Positions 22,576 to 44,276 of a stretch of 64,000 nucleotides of DNA are shown here, one piece after another. The notes beneath the pieces are model-generated. The model was not told the origin of the DNA. It worked only from the letters and a program-made list of their open reading frames with translations, and ran no database searches. The position numbers and the translations under genes are program-made. Source of the stretch: Candidatus Zixiibacteriota bacterium (GTDB taxonomy: Bacteria; RBG-13-66-14; B26-G2; WVWN01); NCBI GenBank assembly GCA_050117845.1, contig JASFLY010000003.1:24851-88850 (forward strand), read 5' to 3'. The first letter of the stretch is position 1. Every line of letters starts with the position of its first letter.

Positions 22576-22902
22576 CTATTCCTCCTCGGCCCACTCTTCC
22601 AGAAACTTTGCTATGAGGTCCTTTTCCTCCCGGTCGACGCCGCGCTGCTCCTCGGCCGTAATGGGGACCAGCTCCCCCTCCTGGAGTTTGGTGATCATCA
22701 GGTCGTGCTGGCTCCGCATCAACTTCCGTACTTTTTCGACCCGGTCCGCGCCGGCGATGGCTCCCACGACCTGCTTCGCCCGGGCCACGACGGCCCCGCC
22801 CTTGAAGACGAGGGTTACGAGGTTGTCGCCGACGTTCTCGGTCTGGATATGGTAGCGTTCACCGCCGACCGTAACTTCGCAATTAAGGCCTTGCGTTATC
22901 AT
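22576..22902 (-). CDS. Hypothetical small protein (108 aa), downstream of obg
   Basis: Packed directly after obg (20-nt overlap) and followed by a terminator; no domain recognised. Confidence 0.4.
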   Translation of the reverse strand: MITQGLNCEVTVGGERYHIQTENVGDNLVTLVFKGGAVVARAKQVVGAIAGADRVEKVRKLMRSQHDLMITKLQEGELVPITAEEQRGVDREEKDLIAKFLEEWAEEE

Positions 22903-23875
22903 AGGCTTTTACGGCTTCCCACAGAGCCACCTTTAATTCCTCGACGCCGGCCCCGGATACGGCGGAAGTCGCTATCACGGCCTTGCCGGCCGCTCCGCCC
23001 AGGGCCGCCGCTATACCTTCGTCGTGCGGCAGGTCCGTTTTATTCGCGATGACGATTACGACTCGCGATACCAGTTCTTTTTTGAAATTCTCTATCTCGG
23101 CGACGACGGTTTCGAAGTCGCGCACCGGCGACTCGCCCGAAACATCCACCACGACCGCCAGCGCCTTCGCCCGTTCCACGTGCCGCAGGAAGTCGAGGCC
23201 CAGGCCCCGTCCTTCCGCCGCCCCCTCCAAAAGGCCCGGCACCTCTATTACGGCGTAGGTCTGGGCCGCCGAATATTCCACGATGCCCAGCTGGGGAGCC
23301 AGCGTCGTGAAAGGATACGGCGCGACCCTGGGATGGGCGGAACTTAGCGCGGCGAGAACCGACGATTTCCCGGCGTTGGGGGGCCCGATGAGCGCGACGT
23401 CGGCTATTAGCTTCAGCGTCAGCCGCAGGCGGCGCTGTTGGCCCGGACCACCGTCCTCGGCGTAGCGGGGAACCTGCATCGTCGGCGTGGCGAAATGGGA
23501 ATTGCCCCGGCCGCCTCGGCCTCCCCGGGCCAGGAGGACCTCTTCGGACGCCGCCGCCACTTCTCCCACGACGGAGCCGCCGTCGTCCTCGATGACGGTC
23601 CCCGGCGGGACCCGTATCCATTTATTCTCCCCGGCGGCGCCGGTACGCTTCCTTCCGGCCCCGTCTACGCCGCCGTCGGCCGCGACGAGTTCAACACCCG
23701 CCAGGTGGTTCAGCGTGCGGAGGCCGCCGTGGCCCACTGCGTATACCGAGCCGCCTCGGCCGCCGTCGCCGCCGTCCGGGCCGCCCCGGGGGACGAACTT
23801 CTCCCGGCGGAAGGAAACCGCGCCCCGGCCGCCGTCGCCTCCCCGCACTTCCAGCTCCACTTCGTCGATAAACAC
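22883..23875 (-). CDS. obg: GTPase Obg/CgtA
   Basis: Obg glycine-rich N-domain (MFIDEVELEVRGGDGGRGAVSFRREKFVPRGGPDGGDGGRGGSV…) and GTPase domain (ADVALIGPPNAGKSSVLAAL…PFTTLAPQLGIV…VANKTDL). Confidence 0.9.
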   Translation of the reverse strand: MFIDEVELEVRGGDGGRGAVSFRREKFVPRGGPDGGDGGRGGSVYAVGHGGLRTLNHLAGVELVAADGGVDGAGRKRTGAAGENKWIRVPPGTVIEDDGGSVVGEVAAASEEVLLARGGRGGRGNSHFATPTMQVPRYAEDGGPGQQRRLRLTLKLIADVALIGPPNAGKSSVLAALSSAHPRVAPYPFTTLAPQLGIVEYSAAQTYAVIEVPGLLEGAAEGRGLGLDFLRHVERAKALAVVVDVSGESPVRDFETVVAEIENFKKELVSRVVIVIANKTDLPHDEGIAAALGGAAGKAVIATSAVSGAGVEELKVALWEAVKAYDNARP

Positions 23876-23968: not shown

Positions 23969-24223
23969 TTACGAAGCGGGAACGACGTGTACCTCGCGCC
24001 GGTTCCTGCGCCGCACGAATTCCACCCGACCAGTTACCGTCGCGAATAAGGTATAATCTCTCCCCATGCCGACGTTCTCGCCGGGGTAATAGCTGGTGCC
24101 GTGCTGACGAACGATAATGGAGCCCGCGGTAACGGGCTGGCCGCCGTACGCCTTGATGCCCAGGCGCTGGCCGGCGCTGTCGCGGCCGTTGCGGGAGGAA
24201 CCACCTGATTTCTTGTGAGCCAT
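23969..24223 (-). CDS. rpmA: 50S ribosomal protein L27
   Basis: [69 protein letters not shown]. Confidence 0.95.
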
Positions 24224-24261: not shown

Positions 24262-24576
24262 CTAGGACTTCGTTACGGACAATACCTTGAGAACCGTATA
24301 CGGCTGCCGGTATCCCCGTAAGCGCCGGTAGTTCTTACGACGCTTGAATTTAAAAACTTCGACCTTGGGTCGCCGCTCGTGAGCCACGACCTCGGCGGTA
24401 ACGCGCGCGTTCGGGACCAGCGGCGTACCCACTTCGGCGCCTTTGTCGTCGCCGAGCAGGAGTACTTCGTCCAGCTCCACTTGCGCGCCTACGTCAACGT
24501 TCATCAGATCGACGGCGACCAATTCGCCTTCGCTCATCCGGTATTGACGGTTTCTATTTCGTACCAATGCGAACAT
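24262..24576 (-). CDS. rplU: 50S ribosomal protein L21
   Basis: [52 protein letters not shown]…[26 protein letters not shown]. The track start at 24582 (MIM…) is probably 2 codons too long. Confidence 0.9.
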
Positions 24577-24639
24577 AATCATCCTTAGGTTAGCGTGTTT
24601 TTTAACATATTAGGATGATAATGTCAAGAGTTCTTTCGG

Positions 24640-24672
24640 CCCGCGTACTATATATTATACCATAAGCGGGGG
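24640..24672 (-). promoter_or_regulatory. Putative rplU-rpmA-obg promoter with an extended -10 (TGgTATAAT) on the minus strand
   Basis: The minus-strand reading …gcttaTGgTATAATatatag… lies about 70 nt upstream of the rplU start. A second TTGACA sits nearer the start. Confidence 0.35.
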
Positions 24673-24874
24673 CATCATTTCCAAAGCCGGAAACGAAAGG
24701 GGCCGGCGACGGCCCTGCGAAAAACCGGCCTCAATACCTCTTACGTTAAAAGGTAGACCGCCGATTTAACACTGGTTATAATGAAACACCCCCGCGGGAG
24801 TTATTACTAAACGTTCCGTCCGGGTGAAACAACCTGAAGGCCGTTTCTATCGAAGCTCCGGATTTTTTTTTTGC

Positions 24875-24904
24875 TTGACAAGGAAAATCCCTTTCTATTA
24901 TAAT
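24875..24904 (+). promoter_or_regulatory. Near-consensus sigma70 promoter (TTGACA-18-TATAAT) with an upstream T-tract, driving the lipoprotein/LysM pair
   Basis: ggattttttttttgcTTGACAaggaaaatccctttctatTATAATgc; the predicted transcript carries a ~100-nt leader before the ATG at 25015. Confidence 0.6.
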
Positions 24905-25014
24905 GCTGAGCCAAGGAGCAAGCCCAAAGTACAAACGCTTTGGAGCAAGGAAATCATAAATATTACCGGATTACCGAGCTTACACAGTCCCTCGAAGGGA
25001 GGTGAATCGCCAGG

Positions 25015-25335
25015 ATGAAAAAGGCCATTATCTTCAGCGTCATTGGAGCTTTCATTCTTGGCTTCTTAGCCCTCGGTTGCGGCCCGAGCAAGGAATTGCT
25101 CGACGCGTACTACGACGCGAAAATGAAGAAGCAGGAAGGCGAAGACCGTCTCGCCAAAGCGAAATCTGCCAACGAAGCTTACAAGGCTGAGTTCGACAAG
25201 GCCGTCAAGAAGATCGACGAGCTTCGTGCGCAGCACAAAGACCTTCACGAGAAACGCAACAACATCGAGAAGGCTCGCGGAATGAAAATCACGCCGTTGC
25301 TCCACGGCGCCGAGAAAGAACCTACTTGGGAATAA
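25015..25335 (+). CDS. Small coiled-coil lipoprotein (106 aa), hypothetical
   Basis: Signal peptide plus lipobox (…AFILGFLALGCGPS…). The mature part is Lys/Glu/Ala-rich with heptad-like character (…AKMKKQEGEDRLAKAKSANEAYKAEFDKAVKKIDELRAQHKDLHEKRNNIEKAR…). Local GC is ~48% against a ~66% background. Confidence 0.6.
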   Translation: MKKAIIFSVIGAFILGFLALGCGPSKELLDAYYDAKMKKQEGEDRLAKAKSANEAYKAEFDKAVKKIDELRAQHKDLHEKRNNIEKARGMKITPLLHGAEKEPTWE

Positions 25336-25421
25336 GCTGAATTTTAGCCCGGCACGTAATTAATAACACCCATACGAAGCCGTGGCTTAAAAATACTCCT
25401 CAAGGAAAGGGGTGTTAACGG

Positions 25422-25898
25422 GTGAAAAAGGCTGTCTTAGCTTTAGCGGTCTTCGTGCTCACGGTCGCCCCGTTCGCTTTGGCCCAGGATTACGACGCGC
25501 TTAAGCGCGAAGTCAAAATGAACGAAGGCGCCGGCGAAGGCGATATAAACGCGCAGATCCAAAGCCGCCTTGACGATGCCGCCCGGCTGAACAAAGAGGC
25601 CGAGGGTGTCGAGTTCGAGAACAAGGCGCTCGAAGGTAAAGTAATGAAGGTCCAGAAGGTACACGACTTCTGGAAGACGCTAATCGGCGAAGATCAGGCG
25701 TTCCTCAACAAATGGGCGGAGCGCGAAGGTGATCACGTCGTAGTCGAGGGCGAATGCCTCTGGATGATCGCGGGTATGGAATACGGCCATCCCTACTACT
25801 ACAAATGGCCGCTTATTTATAATGCCAACCGCGACCTCATCAAGGATCCGGACCTCATTTATCCTGGCTGGAACCTCAAAGTTCCCGCGATGCAGTAA
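25422..25898 (+). CDS. Secreted LysM domain protein (158 aa)
   Basis: GTG start after RBS aaggaaagggg; signal peptide [23 protein letters not shown]; C-terminal LysM (…[49 protein letters not shown]). Confidence 0.7.
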
Positions 25899-25920
25899 TC
25901 ATCGATCACGGTTATAAAAG

Positions 25921-25951
25921 GGCAGTCGGCTTAAACGACTGCCTTTTTTTT
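25921..25951 (+). terminator. Strong rho-independent terminator after the LysM gene
   Basis: GGCAGTCGgcttaaaCGACTGCCtttttttt. Confidence 0.7.
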
Positions 25952-25966
25952 AGCCCCTTACGTTAT

Positions 25967-26420
<454 letters not shown>

Positions 26421-26422
<2 letters not shown>

Positions 26423-40457: not shown

Positions 40458-40769
40458 TTAACCGCGTAACTCGCGGAGGTCGTCAATGGCGACGGTCCCC
40501 CGCGACCGGTATATTGCCAATATCAACGCCAGCCCCACGACCGCCTCGGCCGCGGCGACGGTAATAACGAAAATCGAGAACACCTGGCCGTCCAGCATCG
40601 CCGGCCCGTAAATCCGGTCGAACGTAACCAGCGCCACGTTAACGGCGTTCAGCATCAGCTCGATGCCCATGAGTATGCCGATGGCGTTGCGCCGGGTCAG
40701 GGCGACCAGCAGGCCGATGCCGAAGAGGAGCAGCGAAACACCCAGGAAATGAAGCGGCGTGATAGCCAT
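40458..40769 (-). CDS. nuoK: NADH-quinone oxidoreductase subunit K
   Basis: 103 aa, 3 TM helices; …GILMGIELMLNAVNVALV…. Confidence 0.9.
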   Translation of the reverse strand: MAITPLHFLGVSLLLFGIGLLVALTRRNAIGILMGIELMLNAVNVALVTFDRIYGPAMLDGQVFSIFVITVAAAEAVVGLALILAIYRSRGTVAIDDLRELRG

Positions 40770-41278
40770 TATTTCCGCTCCTCCTTACGGGCCAGGACGA
40801 TAGCGCCGATGAGAGCGCCCAGAAGCAAGAGAGAGATTACCTCGAAAGGCAACAGGTACGTGGAGAGGAGGGCCGAGGCCAACGCCTCGATGGCCCCCTC
40901 GCCGTCCGGTACGGCCGCCAACGGCGGCAGGTCCACCTTCCACATAACCAGGGCCGACGCGGCCGCGAGCGCCAGGAGGACCGGTATCGCGGGCAAAATC
41001 GCCCGGGTGTACTGCTTGACCCGGCGGGAAGTTATCCGCTGGGTCAACATTACGGCGAAAAGTATCAGCACGGCGATGGCGCCCACGTAAATCAGAACCT
41101 GGACGCCCGCCAGGAACTCCGCCCCCAAAAGGACGAAGAGCGAGGCCACCGCGCACAGCGCCAGTATCAAACTCAGGCCGGCGTGGAAAAGGTTGCGCAG
41201 GAACAGCACGCCCAGCGCGCTCAGGAGCGCGACGCCCGCGACGCCGTAAAAAGCTATTATATAAATCCAATCGGTCAT
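40769..41278 (-). CDS. nuoJ: NADH-quinone oxidoreductase subunit J
   Basis: 169 aa polytopic protein with NuoJ-like sequence. Confidence 0.85.
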   Translation of the reverse strand: MTDWIYIIAFYGVAGVALLSALGVLFLRNLFHAGLSLILALCAVASLFVLLGAEFLAGVQVLIYVGAIAVLILFAVMLTQRITSRRVKQYTRAILPAIPVLLALAAASALVMWKVDLPPLAAVPDGEGAIEALASALLSTYLLPFEVISLLLLGALIGAIVLARKEERK

Positions 41279-41299: not shown

Positions 41300-41830
41300 T
41301 TAAACGTCGTCGGGTTCCATCCATTCCACTACGTAACGGTTAACTTCGGCGTTTTCGGCTCGATTGTCCAGGACCGTAACTCGCACGTTTAAGGCCCCGA
41401 GACCCGTGAAGCCCGCCGTTAAAACGCCCCGAATGAATTCGACGCTTCTAATAATCGAGGAATCTTTAATAACCAAACGGCCCGGCCTGTATTCTTCGAC
41501 GACGTATTCCCCGGTCCCCGGTCCCCGCACGAAATGGGGATATACGCTCGCTACCTTCTCGGCGAAAGCCCCCGTCGACGTTATACCCAATTCCCTAAGT
41601 TCGGACGTTACTACGTTGGTCAACTCGTTGCCCATAATAACCAACGCCTGCGGCGATATATGTTCGAGTAAGTATTCTAACGTCGCGACGTACGGCTCCC
41701 CTTCATACCACCCGTTCGGGTCGAACTCCCTTTCGAAATATCCCCCCAGGTCGGGCCTTACGATATCCGCGATATGGGGAAATACGTTTTTTATACCCTG
41801 GTATAAAGCGCCCCGGACTTCGATTGCCAT
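41300..41830 (-). CDS. Paralog 1 of a tandem family of ~175-aa cytoplasmic proteins of unknown function
   Basis: MAIEVRGALYQGIKNVFPHIADIVRPDLGGYFEREFDPNGWYEGEPYVATLEYLLEHISPQALVIMGNELTNV…FAEKVASVYPHFVRGPGTGEYVVEEYRPGRLVIKD…LNVRVTVLDNRAENAEVNRYVVEWMEPDDV. The ATG is directly preceded by GGAGG; the track extends the ORF to a GTG at 41881. Confidence 0.6.
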   Translation of the reverse strand: MAIEVRGALYQGIKNVFPHIADIVRPDLGGYFEREFDPNGWYEGEPYVATLEYLLEHISPQALVIMGNELTNVVTSELRELGITSTGAFAEKVASVYPHFVRGPGTGEYVVEEYRPGRLVIKDSSIIRSVEFIRGVLTAGFTGLGALNVRVTVLDNRAENAEVNRYVVEWMEPDDV

Positions 41831-41973
41831 CCTCCTCGCTGCGTGTTTACCGTAACCGTCCCCCCGCCGGAACCGGCCCACGCCGACGTACGCCCGGGCT
41901 ATTAAAATATCACTTGTTACACAATACTACCTCCCGCCTCTATCCGCGCGTTACCGTAAAAATCTCGACGCTA

Positions 41974-42504
41974 TTAATCGTCGTCGGTTTCCAGCCACTC
42001 CACGAGGTACCTATTCGCTTCCGCACCCGAAGCCCGGTTGTCCAGCAGGATAACCCGCACGTTCAAAGCCCCGAAAACGGAAAAAGTCGCCGCCAGAACT
42101 CCCCTCGTAAATTCGGCGTTCGAAATAATCGAAGACTCCCTCACCACCATACGGCCCGGACGATATTCCTCAACGAGCCATTCACCTGTTTCGGGGCCCC
42201 TTACGAATCGGGGATAGACCTGACCTACTTTTTCCGCAAACGTTCTGATCGACGTTATCCCGAGGTGCTTGAGTTCCTCGGCTATTATGCTAGTTAATTC
42301 CTTCCCCAAAATAACTATCGCTTGAGGCGATATGCGTTAGTATAAATACTCCAACGCCGCTATGTAATACTCCCCTTCATACCACGCGGCCGGGTTGATT
42401 TCACCCTCGAAATGTTTTCCCAACTCGGGCGGTAAAATTTCCGCGATATCGGGAAAAACATTCTTCACACTCTGTAGCAAAACCCCCAAGACCTCGATAG
42501 CGGG
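41974..42504 (-). pseudogene. Paralog 2 of the same family, with an in-frame TAA
   Basis: The C-terminal 111 aa are a track ORF (MGKELTSIIAEEL…YLVEWLETDDD). The upstream in-frame translation reads …PAIEVLGVLLQSVKNVFPDIAEILPPELGKHFEGEINPAAWYEGEYYIAALEYLY*RISPQAIVILGKELTS…, where the conserved LEH is replaced by Y-stop-R (TAA at ~42337–42339). No ATG precedes IEV. Confidence 0.5.
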
Positions 42505-42649
42505 CCACCTCGCTGTTCGTTTACTTCTTCATCCGCTCCAGCAAGTATCGGCATGTCGCACCGGCTCAAGCCCAGCCGTAACACCCCCTATACGCTTCCC
42601 TATCACCCCCCGTGTTTCCCGCCGCCGATTCCGCCCCCACCGAACGCTT

Positions 42650-43180
42650 TTACTTCCCGTCGGCCTCGATCCATTCCACCAGCAACCGGTTATACTCCGC
42701 GCCCTTCGCCCTTTCGTTAAGAACCGTGATCCGGATATTTACGGCGCCGAACACGTTAAACAAAGCTTTTAATACACCCAGTACGAAACTAATATTCCAG
42801 ACTATTCCGGTTTCCCTTACTACCATTCTTCCGGGACGGTACTCCTCCGGAAACCACCCGCCGGCCCCCGGGCCCCGTACGAATTGGGGATAAAGTTCGG
42901 CCACTTTCTCCGCGAAGTCCCGCGTCGTTTTAATCCCCGTCGCCCACATCATCGCCTTCCCCACTTCGGTCAACTCGTTCCCCAACAACACCATTGCCTG
43001 CGGCGAAATGTGTTCCAGCAAGTATTCCACCGCCGCTACGTACGGTTCACCCTCATACCACGCGGCCGGGTCGATTTCTCTTTCGAAGTATTCCCCGAGT
43101 TCCGGCGGCACTATTTCCGCGATATGAGGGAATACGTTCTTTATTGCCTGGTAGAATACGCCCCGTACTTCGATTTCTGC
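42650..43180 (-). CDS. Paralog 3 of the same family; the conserved N-terminus lacks a canonical start codon
   Basis: Full in-frame similarity runs from AEIEVRGVFYQAIKNVFPHIAEIVPPELGEYFEREIDPAAWYEGEPYVAAVEYLLEHISPQAMVLLGNELTEV… to …EYNRLLVEWIEADGK. The track ORF starts at an internal GTG (VPPELG). The paralog-4 stop lies immediately upstream, and an aaggggg SD-like element sits 5 nt before an ATC codon. Confidence 0.5.
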   Translation of the reverse strand, partial: AEIEVRGVFYQAIKNVFPHIAEIVPPELGEYFEREIDPAAWYEGEPYVAAVEYLLEHISPQAMVLLGNELTEVGKAMMWATGIKTTRDFAEKVAELYPQFVRGPGAGGWFPEEYRPGRMVVRETGIVWNISFVLGVLKALFNVFGAVNIRITVLNERAKGAEYNRLLVEWIEADGK

Positions 43181-43195
43181 CCCCTTTCGCGTGCG

Positions 43196-43720
43196 CTACG
43201 CCATTATCCACTCCATCAGGTAACGGTCGGCCCCGCCTTCCCCGCTCCGCGTATCGATCATTTCGACGCGGATGTTATAAGCTCCCGTAGATTCCAAAGC
43301 CCGCCGCACTATTCCGACGCAAATATCGGGCTGTGCGAAGTCGCCGTCGTAACGCAATATCGACCGGCCTTCGCGGTATTCCTCCAACGTCCAGCCGCCG
43401 CCCTCTCCCCTAACGAATTCGCGGTATACGTCGTTAACCTTTTCCATGAAGTTACGCGGCGTATTAATCCCCAACTCCCGCAACTGCGACTCGAAAAGGT
43501 CGATAAGTCTCGTGCCCACCAGGGCGTTAACGGTCGGGGACATGTGCTTAATTAAATACTCCCGCGCTCGCAGGTACAAGTCCGCCGAATACCAACCGTC
43601 GGCCTTTACTTCCCGGAACAACTTGGCGAGCTCCGGGTCGACGACGTCCCCTAGATGCGGGAATACCCCTTTCACCATAAGGTATAAGACTCCGCGGACT
43701 TCGATTTTGGGCGTCATCAT
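43196..43720 (-). CDS. Paralog 4 (most divergent) of the same family
   Basis: MMTPKIEVRGVLYLMVKGVFPHLGDVVDPELAKLFREVKADGWYSADLYLRAREYLIKHMSPTVNALVGTRLIDL…FMEKVNDVYREFVRGEGGGWTLEEYREGRSILRYD…YNIRVEMIDTRSGEGGADRYLMEWIMA; RBS ggggag 8 nt upstream of ATGATG. Confidence 0.6.
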   Translation of the reverse strand: MMTPKIEVRGVLYLMVKGVFPHLGDVVDPELAKLFREVKADGWYSADLYLRAREYLIKHMSPTVNALVGTRLIDLFESQLRELGINTPRNFMEKVNDVYREFVRGEGGGWTLEEYREGRSILRYDGDFAQPDICVGIVRRALESTGAYNIRVEMIDTRSGEGGADRYLMEWIMA

Positions 43721-43814: not shown

Positions 43815-44276
43815 CTATTTCTTAAACTCCGGCTCGAGCTGCCGGGATAACAGCTTCGGTATATCGTACACCAATTCGCGTTTATCGTAAACCGATATCT
43901 CGTATTCCGGAATCATCGCCAGCGCCTCGAAGTTGCACACCTCGACGCAGAGGCCGCAATAGATGCACAGGCCGAGGTCGACGACGTAATCGTCGACGAT
44001 GAAGCCCTTGACGCCTTCTTCCTTGTGGCGGCGGAGCGTGATGCACGCGGCGGGACAAACCCGCAGACACTGGCCGCACGCCGTACACTTGTGGCCGCCG
44101 TCGTCGCCGGGCACCATCGCGAGGCGTCCCCGGAACCGCGGCCACTGCTCGAAGCGCTTCTTCGGATACTGAATAGTAACCGAACGCCGGAGCATGTGTT
44201 TGGTCGTCGTGACCATGCCGATAAAGAGCCACCACGTACCTTTGATTACCCGACCTATGGCGCGAAAAATAATCAT
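43815..44276 (-). CDS. nuoI: NADH-quinone oxidoreductase subunit I (2x[4Fe-4S] ferredoxin)
   Basis: Two CxxCxxCxxxCP motifs (CTACGQCLRVCP and CIYCGLCVEVCN). Confidence 0.9.
   Translation of the reverse strand: MIIFRAIGRVIKGTWWLFIGMVTTTKHMLRRSVTIQYPKKRFEQWPRFRGRLAMVPGDDGGHKCTACGQCLRVCPAACITLRRHKEEGVKGFIVDDYVVDLGLCIYCGLCVEVCNFEALAMIPEYEISVYDKRELVYDIPKLLSRQLEPEFKK

Follow-up and report, generated by a model that had tools for sequence, protein, structure and literature searches.

Introduction

The length of Braun's lipoprotein of E. coli, Lpp, sets the width of the periplasm (PMC8824477), and Lpp is confined to some Gammaproteobacteria (bioRxiv 10.1101/2021.05.31.446380). Pal and OmpA, membrane-anchored proteins with a non-covalent peptidoglycan-binding domain, are widespread in Gracilicutes. 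Witwinowski et al., in surveying such tethers, considered Lpp, Pal, OmpA and OmpM, and never mentioned LysM. In the present study, we analysed a stretch of 64 kb (hereafter the window) from contig JASFLY010000003.1 of a bacterium deposited as Candidatus Zixiibacteriota, in which two adjacent genes encode a small coiled-coil lipoprotein (open reading frame 1, ORF1) and a secreted protein ending in a LysM domain (ORF2). We propose, with a probability of about one half, that this pair forms an abundant, non-covalent, two-part tether and spacer between membrane and peptidoglycan that works like Lpp.

Like Lpp, ORF1 is small and nearly all one alpha-helical rod (a helical part of approximately 66 residues versus 58 in Lpp), its length is conserved in a ruler-like way and its expression signals are very strong. 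However, ORF1 has no match to NF040598/PRK15396 at E <= 0.1, and the partner lipoproteins of Melioribacter and Eisenbacteria reach only 21.8–23.8 bits against a cut-off of 43. Furthermore, ORF1 ends in ..PTWE, without the C-terminal Lys needed for L,D-transpeptidase linkage to meso-diaminopimelic acid; contact with the wall would here be non-covalent, through a second chain carrying LysM. Lpp forms one long parallel coiled coil, as a homotrimer; the model of ORF1 is a single 62-residue helix with a/d heptads. A preliminary description of this locus had suggested a functional analogy with Lpp or Pal. The analogy is plausible in view of the pairing across phyla, the rod lengths and the conserved expression signals, but the pair belongs to neither family. 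Indeed, compared with Pal and OmpA, the binding module is a LysM and neither protein matches OmpA_C (PF00691) at E <= 1, anchor and binding module lie on two polypeptides with a presumed coiled-coil joint, and the cassette loci lack the tol-pal context of Pal.

Several LysM proteins are closer in one respect or another. The LysM subtype nearest to that of ORF2 is found in Kbp/YgaU and in XkdP-type proteins (COG1652; PDB 7pvc; phage baseplate 9gb2), which have the motif Y.V..G[DE].L..IA...Y.....W..I[YF].AN... in common with it; unlike Kbp, ORF2 is exported, lacks a BON domain and carries a 59-residue helix before its LysM. LipL71/LruA of Leptospira and the DUF4398-LysM lipoproteins contain the three modules that the preliminary description had pointed out (anchor, helix and one or more LysM) in one chain, whereas here they are split over two putatively co-transcribed genes; the match to LipL71 covers the LysM domain only, at 30.5 bits against a cut-off of 600. 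The periplasmic proteins NlpD, EnvC and DipM also combine lipobox, coiled coil and LysM in various ways, but are defined by a (degenerate) LytM/M23 domain that is absent from the pair. Finally, the abundant verrucomicrobial WP_009060351 of Methylacidiphilum fumariolicum is likewise a small lipoprotein, restricted to its lineage and highly expressed, for which a role in linking outer membrane and peptidoglycan has been proposed; its phylum lacks Lpp. It is unrelated in sequence and is a single protein, with no LysM partner reported (PMC10260701). By comparison with these systems, the pair would be an outer-membrane-to-wall tether made of different parts and divided between two chains.

Results and discussion

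A two-gene cassette found across phyla

Both genes lie on the plus strand of the window, between a promoter and a terminator:

24863–24872, plus strand: T10 tract immediately 5' of the -35 hexamer, where an UP element would lie, as read from the sequence
24875–24904, plus strand: sigma-70-type promoter TTGACA-18-TATAAT (TTGACA 24875–24880, TATAAT 24899–24904)
24911–25014, plus strand: 5' untranslated region (UTR) of approximately 104 nt, from a predicted transcription start
25015–25335, plus strand: ORF1, lipoprotein of 106 amino acids, ATG start; signal peptide 1–21, LALG before C22, helix 26–87
25336–25421, plus strand: intercistronic spacer of 86 nt, with the ORF2 ribosome-binding site AAGGAAAGGGGTG at 25402–25414
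25422–25898, plus strand: ORF2, secreted LysM protein of 158 amino acids, GTG start
25921–25951, plus strand: intrinsic terminator with an 8-bp GC-rich stem, a 7-nt loop and T8

Judged from sequence, this pair is a conserved cassette across phyla. The gene order obg-rpmA-rplU, ORF1-ORF2, dtd-cca-acpS-pdxJ is repeated in the complete genome CP070633, in a JGI contig of 908 kb and in one from Logan; in CP070755 (locus L005) the upstream neighbours differ and the pair and dtd are kept. A wider scan, taking one genome per species, returned 80 loci, in which we counted as a partner any lipobox-bearing ORF of 60–145 amino acids ending within 107 nt upstream of the LysM gene. Such an ORF was present in 54 of the 80 loci, versus three of 285 control ORFs in the same loci. 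The paired loci come from Coatesbacteria, Ignavibacteria/Melioribacter, WOR-3, Hydrothermus, Zixibacteria, Latescibacteria, Eisenbacteria, Cloacimonadia and Cytophagia, so that the conservation beyond a single strain expected in the preliminary description extends to many poorly studied phyla. In the other 26 loci, the LysM proteins mostly bear a lipobox of their own, as in the DUF4398-LysM lipoproteins of Aquificota, Deferribacter and Acidobacteria. A lipobox is also present on the LysM partner of Eisenbacteria. Distant relatives of ORF2 combine a coiled coil with one or two LysM domains.

The same arrangement, with the gene of a small coiled-coil lipoprotein 5' of the LysM gene, occurs in a different genomic context in Coatesbacteria 4484_99 and in WOR-3-like contigs, where phoH-ybeY adjoin and, in one case, LptF/LptG. 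The case with LptF/LptG is that of Coatesbacteria 4484_99, and it marks the lineage as diderm. No published description of the cassette came up in literature searches on it, on Coatesbacteria envelope biology and on MROS_2295/2296, the Melioribacter pair treated below.

Three further observations emerged from the scanned loci. The phoH gene lies directly 3' of the pair in WOR-3, Coatesbacteria 4484_99, Melioribacter, Hydrothermus and Latescibacteria (L007, L009, L035, L042, L080, L085), followed by a 7TM-HD gene and ybeY in the two of these loci with called genes (L007, L009); this linkage is lost in the clade of the window, where dtd is found instead. A family of single-chain lipoproteins (L019, L036, L057, L061, L072, L073) from Aquificota, Deferribacter, Acidobacteria and an unclassified metagenome-assembled genome (MAG) consists of a helical region, which is DUF4398 in L061, the sole member scanned, a LysM and a conserved C-terminus ..[RK]..RG[PA]WSL.D[GN]K. 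Lastly, the partner lipoproteins of Ignavibacteria/Melioribacter (L018–L089) have one internal conserved Cys in common, and 25 of 36 end in Lys (..KLPK, ..KMSK, ..KIGK).

ORF1, a lipoprotein with a single long helix

ORF1 begins with a signal peptide (residues 1–21) and reads MKKAIIFSVIGAFILGFLALG up to the lipobox C22, in agreement with the lipoprotein signature [LVI][ASTVI][GAS]-C. This cysteine is invariant in 30 of 30 homologues, and G21 is nearly so. ORF1 is accordingly predicted to be a substrate of Lgt/LspA, lipidated at Cys22. The AlphaFold2 model (overall predicted local distance difference test, pLDDT, 89) consists of one unbroken helix of 62 residues (26–87; pLDDT ~95), whose hydrophobic residues follow the 3-4 heptad spacing of an a/d pattern with 3.5-residue periodicity. 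After the helix comes a tail, ITPLLHG..EPTWE, which is unstructured in the model and nevertheless conserved; ORF1 and all its close homologues end in ..P[TS]WE or ..DWL(K), rather than in the C-terminal Lys by which Lpp is recognized. Several polar residues are invariant, namely N53(a), H74(a), H78(e), R81(a) and E85(e) in the helix and H97 in the tail, and together with the tail they suggest a specific site, for an interface or a ligand.

ORF1 has no relative in PDB and falls into no family of Pfam or NCBIfam. Since an exhaustive profile search of 1.84 billion representative proteins retrieved five clusters only, the Coatesbacteria-type sequence family is tiny; to recognize its equivalents in other phyla, one has only their position, a lipobox, their length and their helicity. 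A MAG labelled Zixiibacteriota contains a protein 100% identical to ORF1, and the complete 'Candidatus Coatesbacteria' genome CP070633 one that is 89% identical. The taxonomic labels are thus at odds, with identical proteins in a Zixiibacteriota-named MAG and the closest complete genomes named Coatesbacteria.

The functional labels found in databases for ORF1 are FtsB, EnvC, 'nuclease with TOPRIM domain' and 'chromosome segregation ATPase'. We rejected FtsB/DivIC (PF04977), for which the score is 11.9 versus 28.9 bits; proteins of this kind are bitopic, with an uncleaved transmembrane helix and a coiled coil, whereas the invariant lipobox Cys suggests that the N-terminus of ORF1 is cleaved and lipidated.

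ORF2, a secreted LysM protein

ORF2 comprises a signal peptide (residues 1–21, cleaved ALA before QD), a helix (42–100) in which a 3.5-residue periodicity and heptads stand out clearly, and a LysM domain of the YgaU/XkdP type (105–155). AlphaFold2 renders these as a 59-residue helix followed by a C-terminal beta-alpha-alpha-beta domain (domain pLDDT ~90). Foldseek searches with this domain returned LysM structures only, at a root-mean-square deviation of 1.2–2.2 A, among them a phage baseplate LysM, CtCBM50 and Kbp (1.2 A). In addition, the family profile of ORF2 matches the LysM of Kbp with E = 1.8e-12, and orthologues of ORF2 pass the Pfam LysM threshold. A LysM fold of approximately 45–55 residues with its signature is therefore recognized in ORF2 from orthologues, profile and model together, and, as a member of PF01476/CBM50, the domain would bind GlcNAc-containing glycans such as those of peptidoglycan.

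Throughout the clade, ORF2 keeps GTG as its start codon, which might serve to adjust how much of each protein is made. The orthologues in CP070633 (L004, 6412–6888) and CP070755 (L005, 4857–5330) are intact and also start with GTG (VKKAVL.. and VKKTVL..); gene callers had shortened them to 84 and 109 amino acids.

The database label of ORF2 is 'nucleoid-associated protein YgaU' (JGI 'YgaU'). We rejected an identity with Kbp/YgaU (NF008399): the score of 55.1 versus 134 bits comes from the LysM part, the BON domain is replaced by a long helix and a signal peptide is present. The labels 'FtsB', 'EnvC', 'YgaU' and 'nuclease with TOPRIM domain' are hence corrected by the present analysis.

Conserved rod lengths

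The mature lipoprotein measures 65–71 residues in nearly all lineages, although the sequences are too divergent for HMMER to connect them. It is longer in the clade of the window, with 85 residues, of which 66 run from Cys22 to R88 at the end of the helix and 19 form the tail. A spacer would be expected to keep its length in this way while its sequence diverges. A helix of 62–66 residues spans ~9–10 nm, similar to Lpp.

We also measured, in the LysM partner, the segment from the signal-peptide cleavage site to the first LysM domain (pre-LysM segment). In outline, it has ~66 or ~130 residues; in detail, its length is 57–69 residues in WOR-3, Hydrothermus and most Coatesbacteria-type loci, 81–95 in two Coatesbacteria-type loci (L015, L016), 92–99 in Eisenbacteria-type loci, and 128–163 residues in Ignavibacteria/Melioribacter, Zixibacteria, Latescibacteria, Cloacimonadia and Cytophagia. 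In the window, the pre-LysM segment of ORF2 has 66 residues, which equals the 66 residues of ORF1 between C22 and R88.

Transcription and translation signals

The promoter of the pair matches the consensus at 12 of 12 positions and is the single such site in the 64 kb, with 0.01 expected from shuffles. TTGACA and TATAAT are kept in eight loci, including L005 despite its different upstream neighbour gene, and seven other Coatesbacteria-type loci show a T6–T8 tract in the same position. The Shine–Dalgarno sequence of ORF1, GGGAGGTG at 24997–25004, 10 nt 5' of the ATG, is strong and conserved, and the UTR block CTCGAAGGGAGGTGAA..CCAGGATG is invariant or nearly so across the eight aligned loci. 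At the other end, the terminator GGCAGTCG-GCTTAAA-CGACTGCC (25921–25943), followed by T8 (25944–25951), folds with -24.8 kcal/mol, better than every one of 200 shuffles (z = -6.9); the hairpin was also found on the minus strand in the terminator scan. The 86-nt spacer between ORF1 and ORF2 contains no terminator. WOR-3-type relatives, in which the two genes are 10–13 nt apart, are in keeping with a single operon.

With sigma-70 hexamers at a spacing within 16–18 nt at one end and a hairpin with U-tract at the other, the pair thus has the appearance of one transcription unit, and its signals point to constitutive and very strong expression. In these respects the preliminary description proves accurate and in places too cautious: the promoter it called near-perfect is an exact match accompanied by the T10 tract, the hairpin with T8 that it found textbook-like is indeed a strong terminator, the 106-residue coiled-coil lipoprotein is upheld by the gene model, the invariant lipobox Cys and the single 62-residue helix, and the 158-residue secreted protein with a C-terminal LysM by the AlphaFold2 fold, the Foldseek matches and the Kbp profile.

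Some smaller features of the 5' UTR deserve mention. Close to the predicted 5' end, most relatives have the motif AAGGAG; a few compensatory changes are seen among the aligned loci in a stem (CAAGG/CCTTG or CCAAAG/CTTTGG), and the block ATCATAAAT is also conserved. With weak RNAalifold support, these features could stabilize the mRNA or serve as a binding site for a regulator. A structured 5' UTR or riboswitch was considered and found no support, as RNAalifold gives only -6.2 kcal/mol and two pairs with double changes. Rfam yielded no RNA family at the gathering threshold in the whole window, and none at a permissive E-value in 24400–26100, where the matches were solely terminator look-alikes.

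Upstream of the pair, a divergent promoter for rplU lies on the minus strand at 24599–24627 (TTGACA 24627–24622, 17-nt spacer, TGT-TAAAAA 24607–24599), with an extended -10 and a very short leader; its TTGAC core and the block that follows are conserved in relatives. Since its -10 hexamer ends in A, the promoter scan did not pick it up. The ~240 nt from there to the T-tract (24630–24870) are absent or unalignable in relatives, fold no better than shuffles and include a GC-rich hairpin at 24700–24715. Two kinds of candidates in this part were rejected: a small RNA at 24789–24874, with a fold z of 0.19 versus shuffles and a segment missing or unalignable in relatives, and promoter-like sites at 24754 (plus strand) and 24683 (minus strand), which we take as chance occurrences within the non-conserved segment.

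The orthologous pair in Melioribacter roseus

The cultivated Melioribacter roseus has an orthologous pair, the lipoprotein MROS_2295 ('hypothetical') and the adjacent MROS_2296 ('LysM domain protein'). In the supplements of Gavrilov et al. 2017, MROS_2296 is present in the proteomes of the 100,000 g membrane fraction with nine unique peptides (PMC5492636). Its emPAI, a measure of protein abundance, is 0.55–0.94 in all columns, without a difference between aerobic and fermentative growth, and close to the values of an OmpA/MotB protein and of BamD (PMC5492636). MROS_2296 has no predicted anchor and sediments with membranes; this fits attachment through a partner or through wall fragments, with which it is consistent without being proof.

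Proposed function and alternative explanations

Under the tether hypothesis, ORF1 would be lipid-anchored at Cys22, most likely in the inner leaflet of the outer membrane, and project from it as a rigid rod of ~62–66 residues. ORF2 would be freed into the periplasm by signal peptidase I, and its rod (~66 residues before the LysM) would zip in parallel with the equally long rod of ORF1, placing the LysM at the membrane-distal tip, where it would grip the glycan strands of peptidoglycan non-covalently. Both proteins together would then act as an abundant staple and spacer between membrane and wall. The analysis shows paired genes with strong, conserved expression signals and conserved lengths, signals for export and lipidation, helices, a LysM fold and a diderm context; an outer-membrane location, the formation of a hetero-oligomer, peptidoglycan binding and tethering are each putative steps of this scheme. 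An abundant structural protein fits the conserved perfect promoter, the T-tract, the Shine–Dalgarno sequence, the terminator and the rplU/rpmA-like codon choice, and the single-chain designs that join lipoprotein anchor, helical region and LysM (the Eisenbacteria partner, and proteins of Aquificota, Deferribacter and Acidobacteria) are related designs that support a tether.

More tentatively, the pair may represent an unrecognized fifth kind of membrane-to-wall tether, a two-component analogue of Lpp made of a ~66-residue lipoprotein ruler and a coiled-coil LysM adaptor. With equal reserve, we suggest that such a tether could be common to phyla of the FCB group (Ignavibacteriota, Zixibacteria, Latescibacteria, Cloacimonadota and some Bacteroidota) and to Coatesbacteria, WOR-3, Eisenbacteria and Hydrothermae. 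The last four are taken here as candidate phyla of no assigned placement, Coatesbacteria being unplaced at NCBI. In some lineages, the C-terminal Lys of the Ignavibacteria-type lipoproteins might add a covalent, Lpp-style attachment.

A number of points weigh against the tether. Taken alone, the ORF2 of the window is under the Pfam LysM (PF01476) threshold, with 16.4 versus 20.9 bits. No charge complementarity is seen between the ORF1 and ORF2 rods, both of which are neutral to acidic, and the invariant polar patch and tail of ORF1 suggest more than a simple tether model explains. As Lol sorting rules are not established for these phyla, an anchor in the inner membrane is possible. In M. roseus, MROS_2296 ranks ~147th by Mascot score in one sample of a study that identified 1239 proteins, far below an Lpp-like abundance, and cytoplasmic proteins contaminate the membrane fraction; the small lipoprotein MROS_2295 is unlisted in the proteomes, which is uninformative for a small, lipidated, K/E-rich protein (PMC5492636). 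Moreover, an OmpA-like protein is present in M. roseus, and the cassette is therefore not its sole possible tether.

Three other functions can be envisaged for the pair. It is unlikely, although the best surviving of the three, that the two proteins form a scaffold for wall remodelling or division, recruiting or regulating peptidoglycan hydrolases as NlpD, EnvC, DipM and ActS do, in which a lipid anchor, a coiled coil or a LysM goes together with control of amidases and M23 peptidases. The source labels 'FtsB' and 'EnvC' of the lipoprotein and its weak DivIC matches point in this direction, but the DivIC, FtsB and EnvC similarities are sub-threshold (11.9 versus 28.9 bits) and typical of any coiled coil, and neither protein has a LytM/M23 domain. 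Likewise, M23 peptidase and bactofilin genes adjoin the cassette in L005 and an M23 peptidase gene lies 6.5 kb from the pair within the window, but this link is not kept in other loci. The invariant polar patch of ORF1 could dock a partner; nonetheless, the promoter, the ribosomal-protein-like codons and the fixed rod length are better suited to a structural protein of high abundance than to a regulator of low copy number.

Somewhat less likely still is the same architecture with the lipoprotein in the inner membrane, where it would link or space inner membrane and wall or sense the distance to the wall from the periplasmic side. Nothing in the ORF1 sequence assigns it to the outer membrane, sorting signals outside Proteobacteria being not established, and the membrane fraction of M. 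roseus does not separate the two membranes. However, a rod of 9–10 nm matches the outer-membrane-to-wall spacing set by Lpp, and the precedents, namely single-chain lipoprotein-LysM designs, Lpp and Pal, are outer-membrane proteins (see also PMC8824477).

It is improbable that the genes are merely adjacent and act independently, ORF1 as a surface or structural lipoprotein and ORF2 as a free periplasmic wall-binding or osmoprotective protein similar to Kbp/YgaU. Indeed, their adjacency holds across phyla and through changed genomic contexts, and the rod lengths match. The JGI label 'YgaU' and the Kbp LysM, the closest solved one, would favour such a role for ORF2, but Kbp is cytoplasmic, whereas ORF2 has a signal peptide and no BON domain and scores 55 versus 134 bits with NF008399. 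The rods without charge complementarity are also in keeping with separate functions, as may be the negative residues after the lipidated Cys in Ignavibacteria, which faintly recall Bacteroidota surface-export signals.

Origin of the low GC content

The guanine-plus-cytosine (GC) content falls sharply in one region:

24583–25966: low-GC region of ~1.37 kb (1384 nt) between two sets of housekeeping genes

Kilobases 24–26 have the lowest GC in the window, and the region itself has 50.1% versus 63.5% for the whole window, a dip of ~13 points. The preliminary description had rightly noticed a low-GC stretch, but gave it a size of ~1.1 kb and a background of ~66%, both of which need correction, and placed the promoter at its start, whereas the promoter lies ~290 nt inside. 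The part that precedes it (24583–24870) consists of the divergent rplU promoter and a spacer, the latter without conservation in relatives and without significant structure.

Non-coding DNA makes up 586 of the 1384 nt and has a GC of 43–46%. In the coding part, the K/E/N/D-rich proteins have an expected GC of 57–59% at the window-average codon choice, and the codon choice actually used lowers it by ~4 points more, a shift that agrees in direction and size with that of the ribosomal protein genes next to the pair. Observed versus expected values are 52.7 versus 56.8 for ORF1, 54.8 versus 58.7 for ORF2, 56.5 versus 62.3 for rplU and 63.9 versus 67.7 for rpmA; for dtd (68.4 versus 68.1) there is no codon shift. 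GGT, GCT and CGT are used more in the pair, rplU and rpmA, and GGG, CGG, CTG, GTG and ATA less; GC at third codon positions is 0.68–0.70 in the pair and 0.68 in rplU, versus 0.80–0.90 in most genes of the window. Within the limits of small codon counts, this shift is suggestive of highly expressed genes rather than foreign DNA. Of the two explanations offered in the preliminary description, the K/E/N-rich composition is therefore borne out, in company with the codon shift and AT-rich non-coding DNA, and the comparison with ribosomal genes proposed there places the pair next to rplU and rpmA; horizontal acquisition is contradicted by the kept synteny, by this same codon shift and by the lack of viral relatives.

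A mini-island of horizontal or phage origin, with for instance lysis genes of the spanin kind or a LysM protein from a phage tail, could be read from the GC dip, from phage baseplate LysM proteins among the best Foldseek matches of ORF2 and from weak sub-threshold matches to models of phage scaffold, Spackle and LysB. It is effectively refuted, as the order of genes around the pair is the same in several divergent Coatesbacteria genomes, 2.9 million viral contigs contain no ORF1 relative, the region is flanked by neither mobility genes nor repeats, and amino-acid composition, codon shift and AT-rich non-coding DNA fully account for the deficit.

Neighbouring genes and the rest of the window

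The flanking genes are the following:

22883–23875, minus strand: obg, in the same operon as rpmA and rplU
23969–24223, minus strand: rpmA
24262–24582, minus strand: rplU
25967–26422, plus strand: dtd (D-Tyr-tRNA deacylase); beyond it, on the minus strand, cca, acpS and pdxJ

The dtd start lies 15 nt past the T8 of the terminator (25944–25951), without a recognizable Shine–Dalgarno sequence; dtd may be translated from a leaderless transcript or through read-through of the terminator. From the ORF2 stop to the dtd start there are 65–75 nt, a spacing repeated in L004, L005 and L006.

The rest of the 64 kb is core chromosome, with the nuo operon, tgt, rph, smpB and thiamine genes. Within the nuo operon, between nuoI (43815–44276) and nuoJ (40769–41278), four tandem paralogous ORFs of 174, 153, 111 and 193 amino acids lie on the minus strand at 41300–43720, with the motifs FAEKV..VYP.FVRGPG.GE..VEEYRPGR and LDNRA...NRY.VEW.E.D in common. 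None of the four has a Pfam match, and they form the second-lowest GC patch of the window (54–56%), with strong negative GC skew.

Significance

In a genome of high GC, a sharp dip can simply be the mark of a highly expressed gene whose protein is K/E-rich. If the pair described here is a true tether, it would be a testable candidate for the component that spaces outer membrane and wall in several FCB-group and allied candidate phyla. Carriers of the cassette that can be cultivated include Melioribacter roseus (MROS_2295/2296) and probably other cultured Ignavibacteria.

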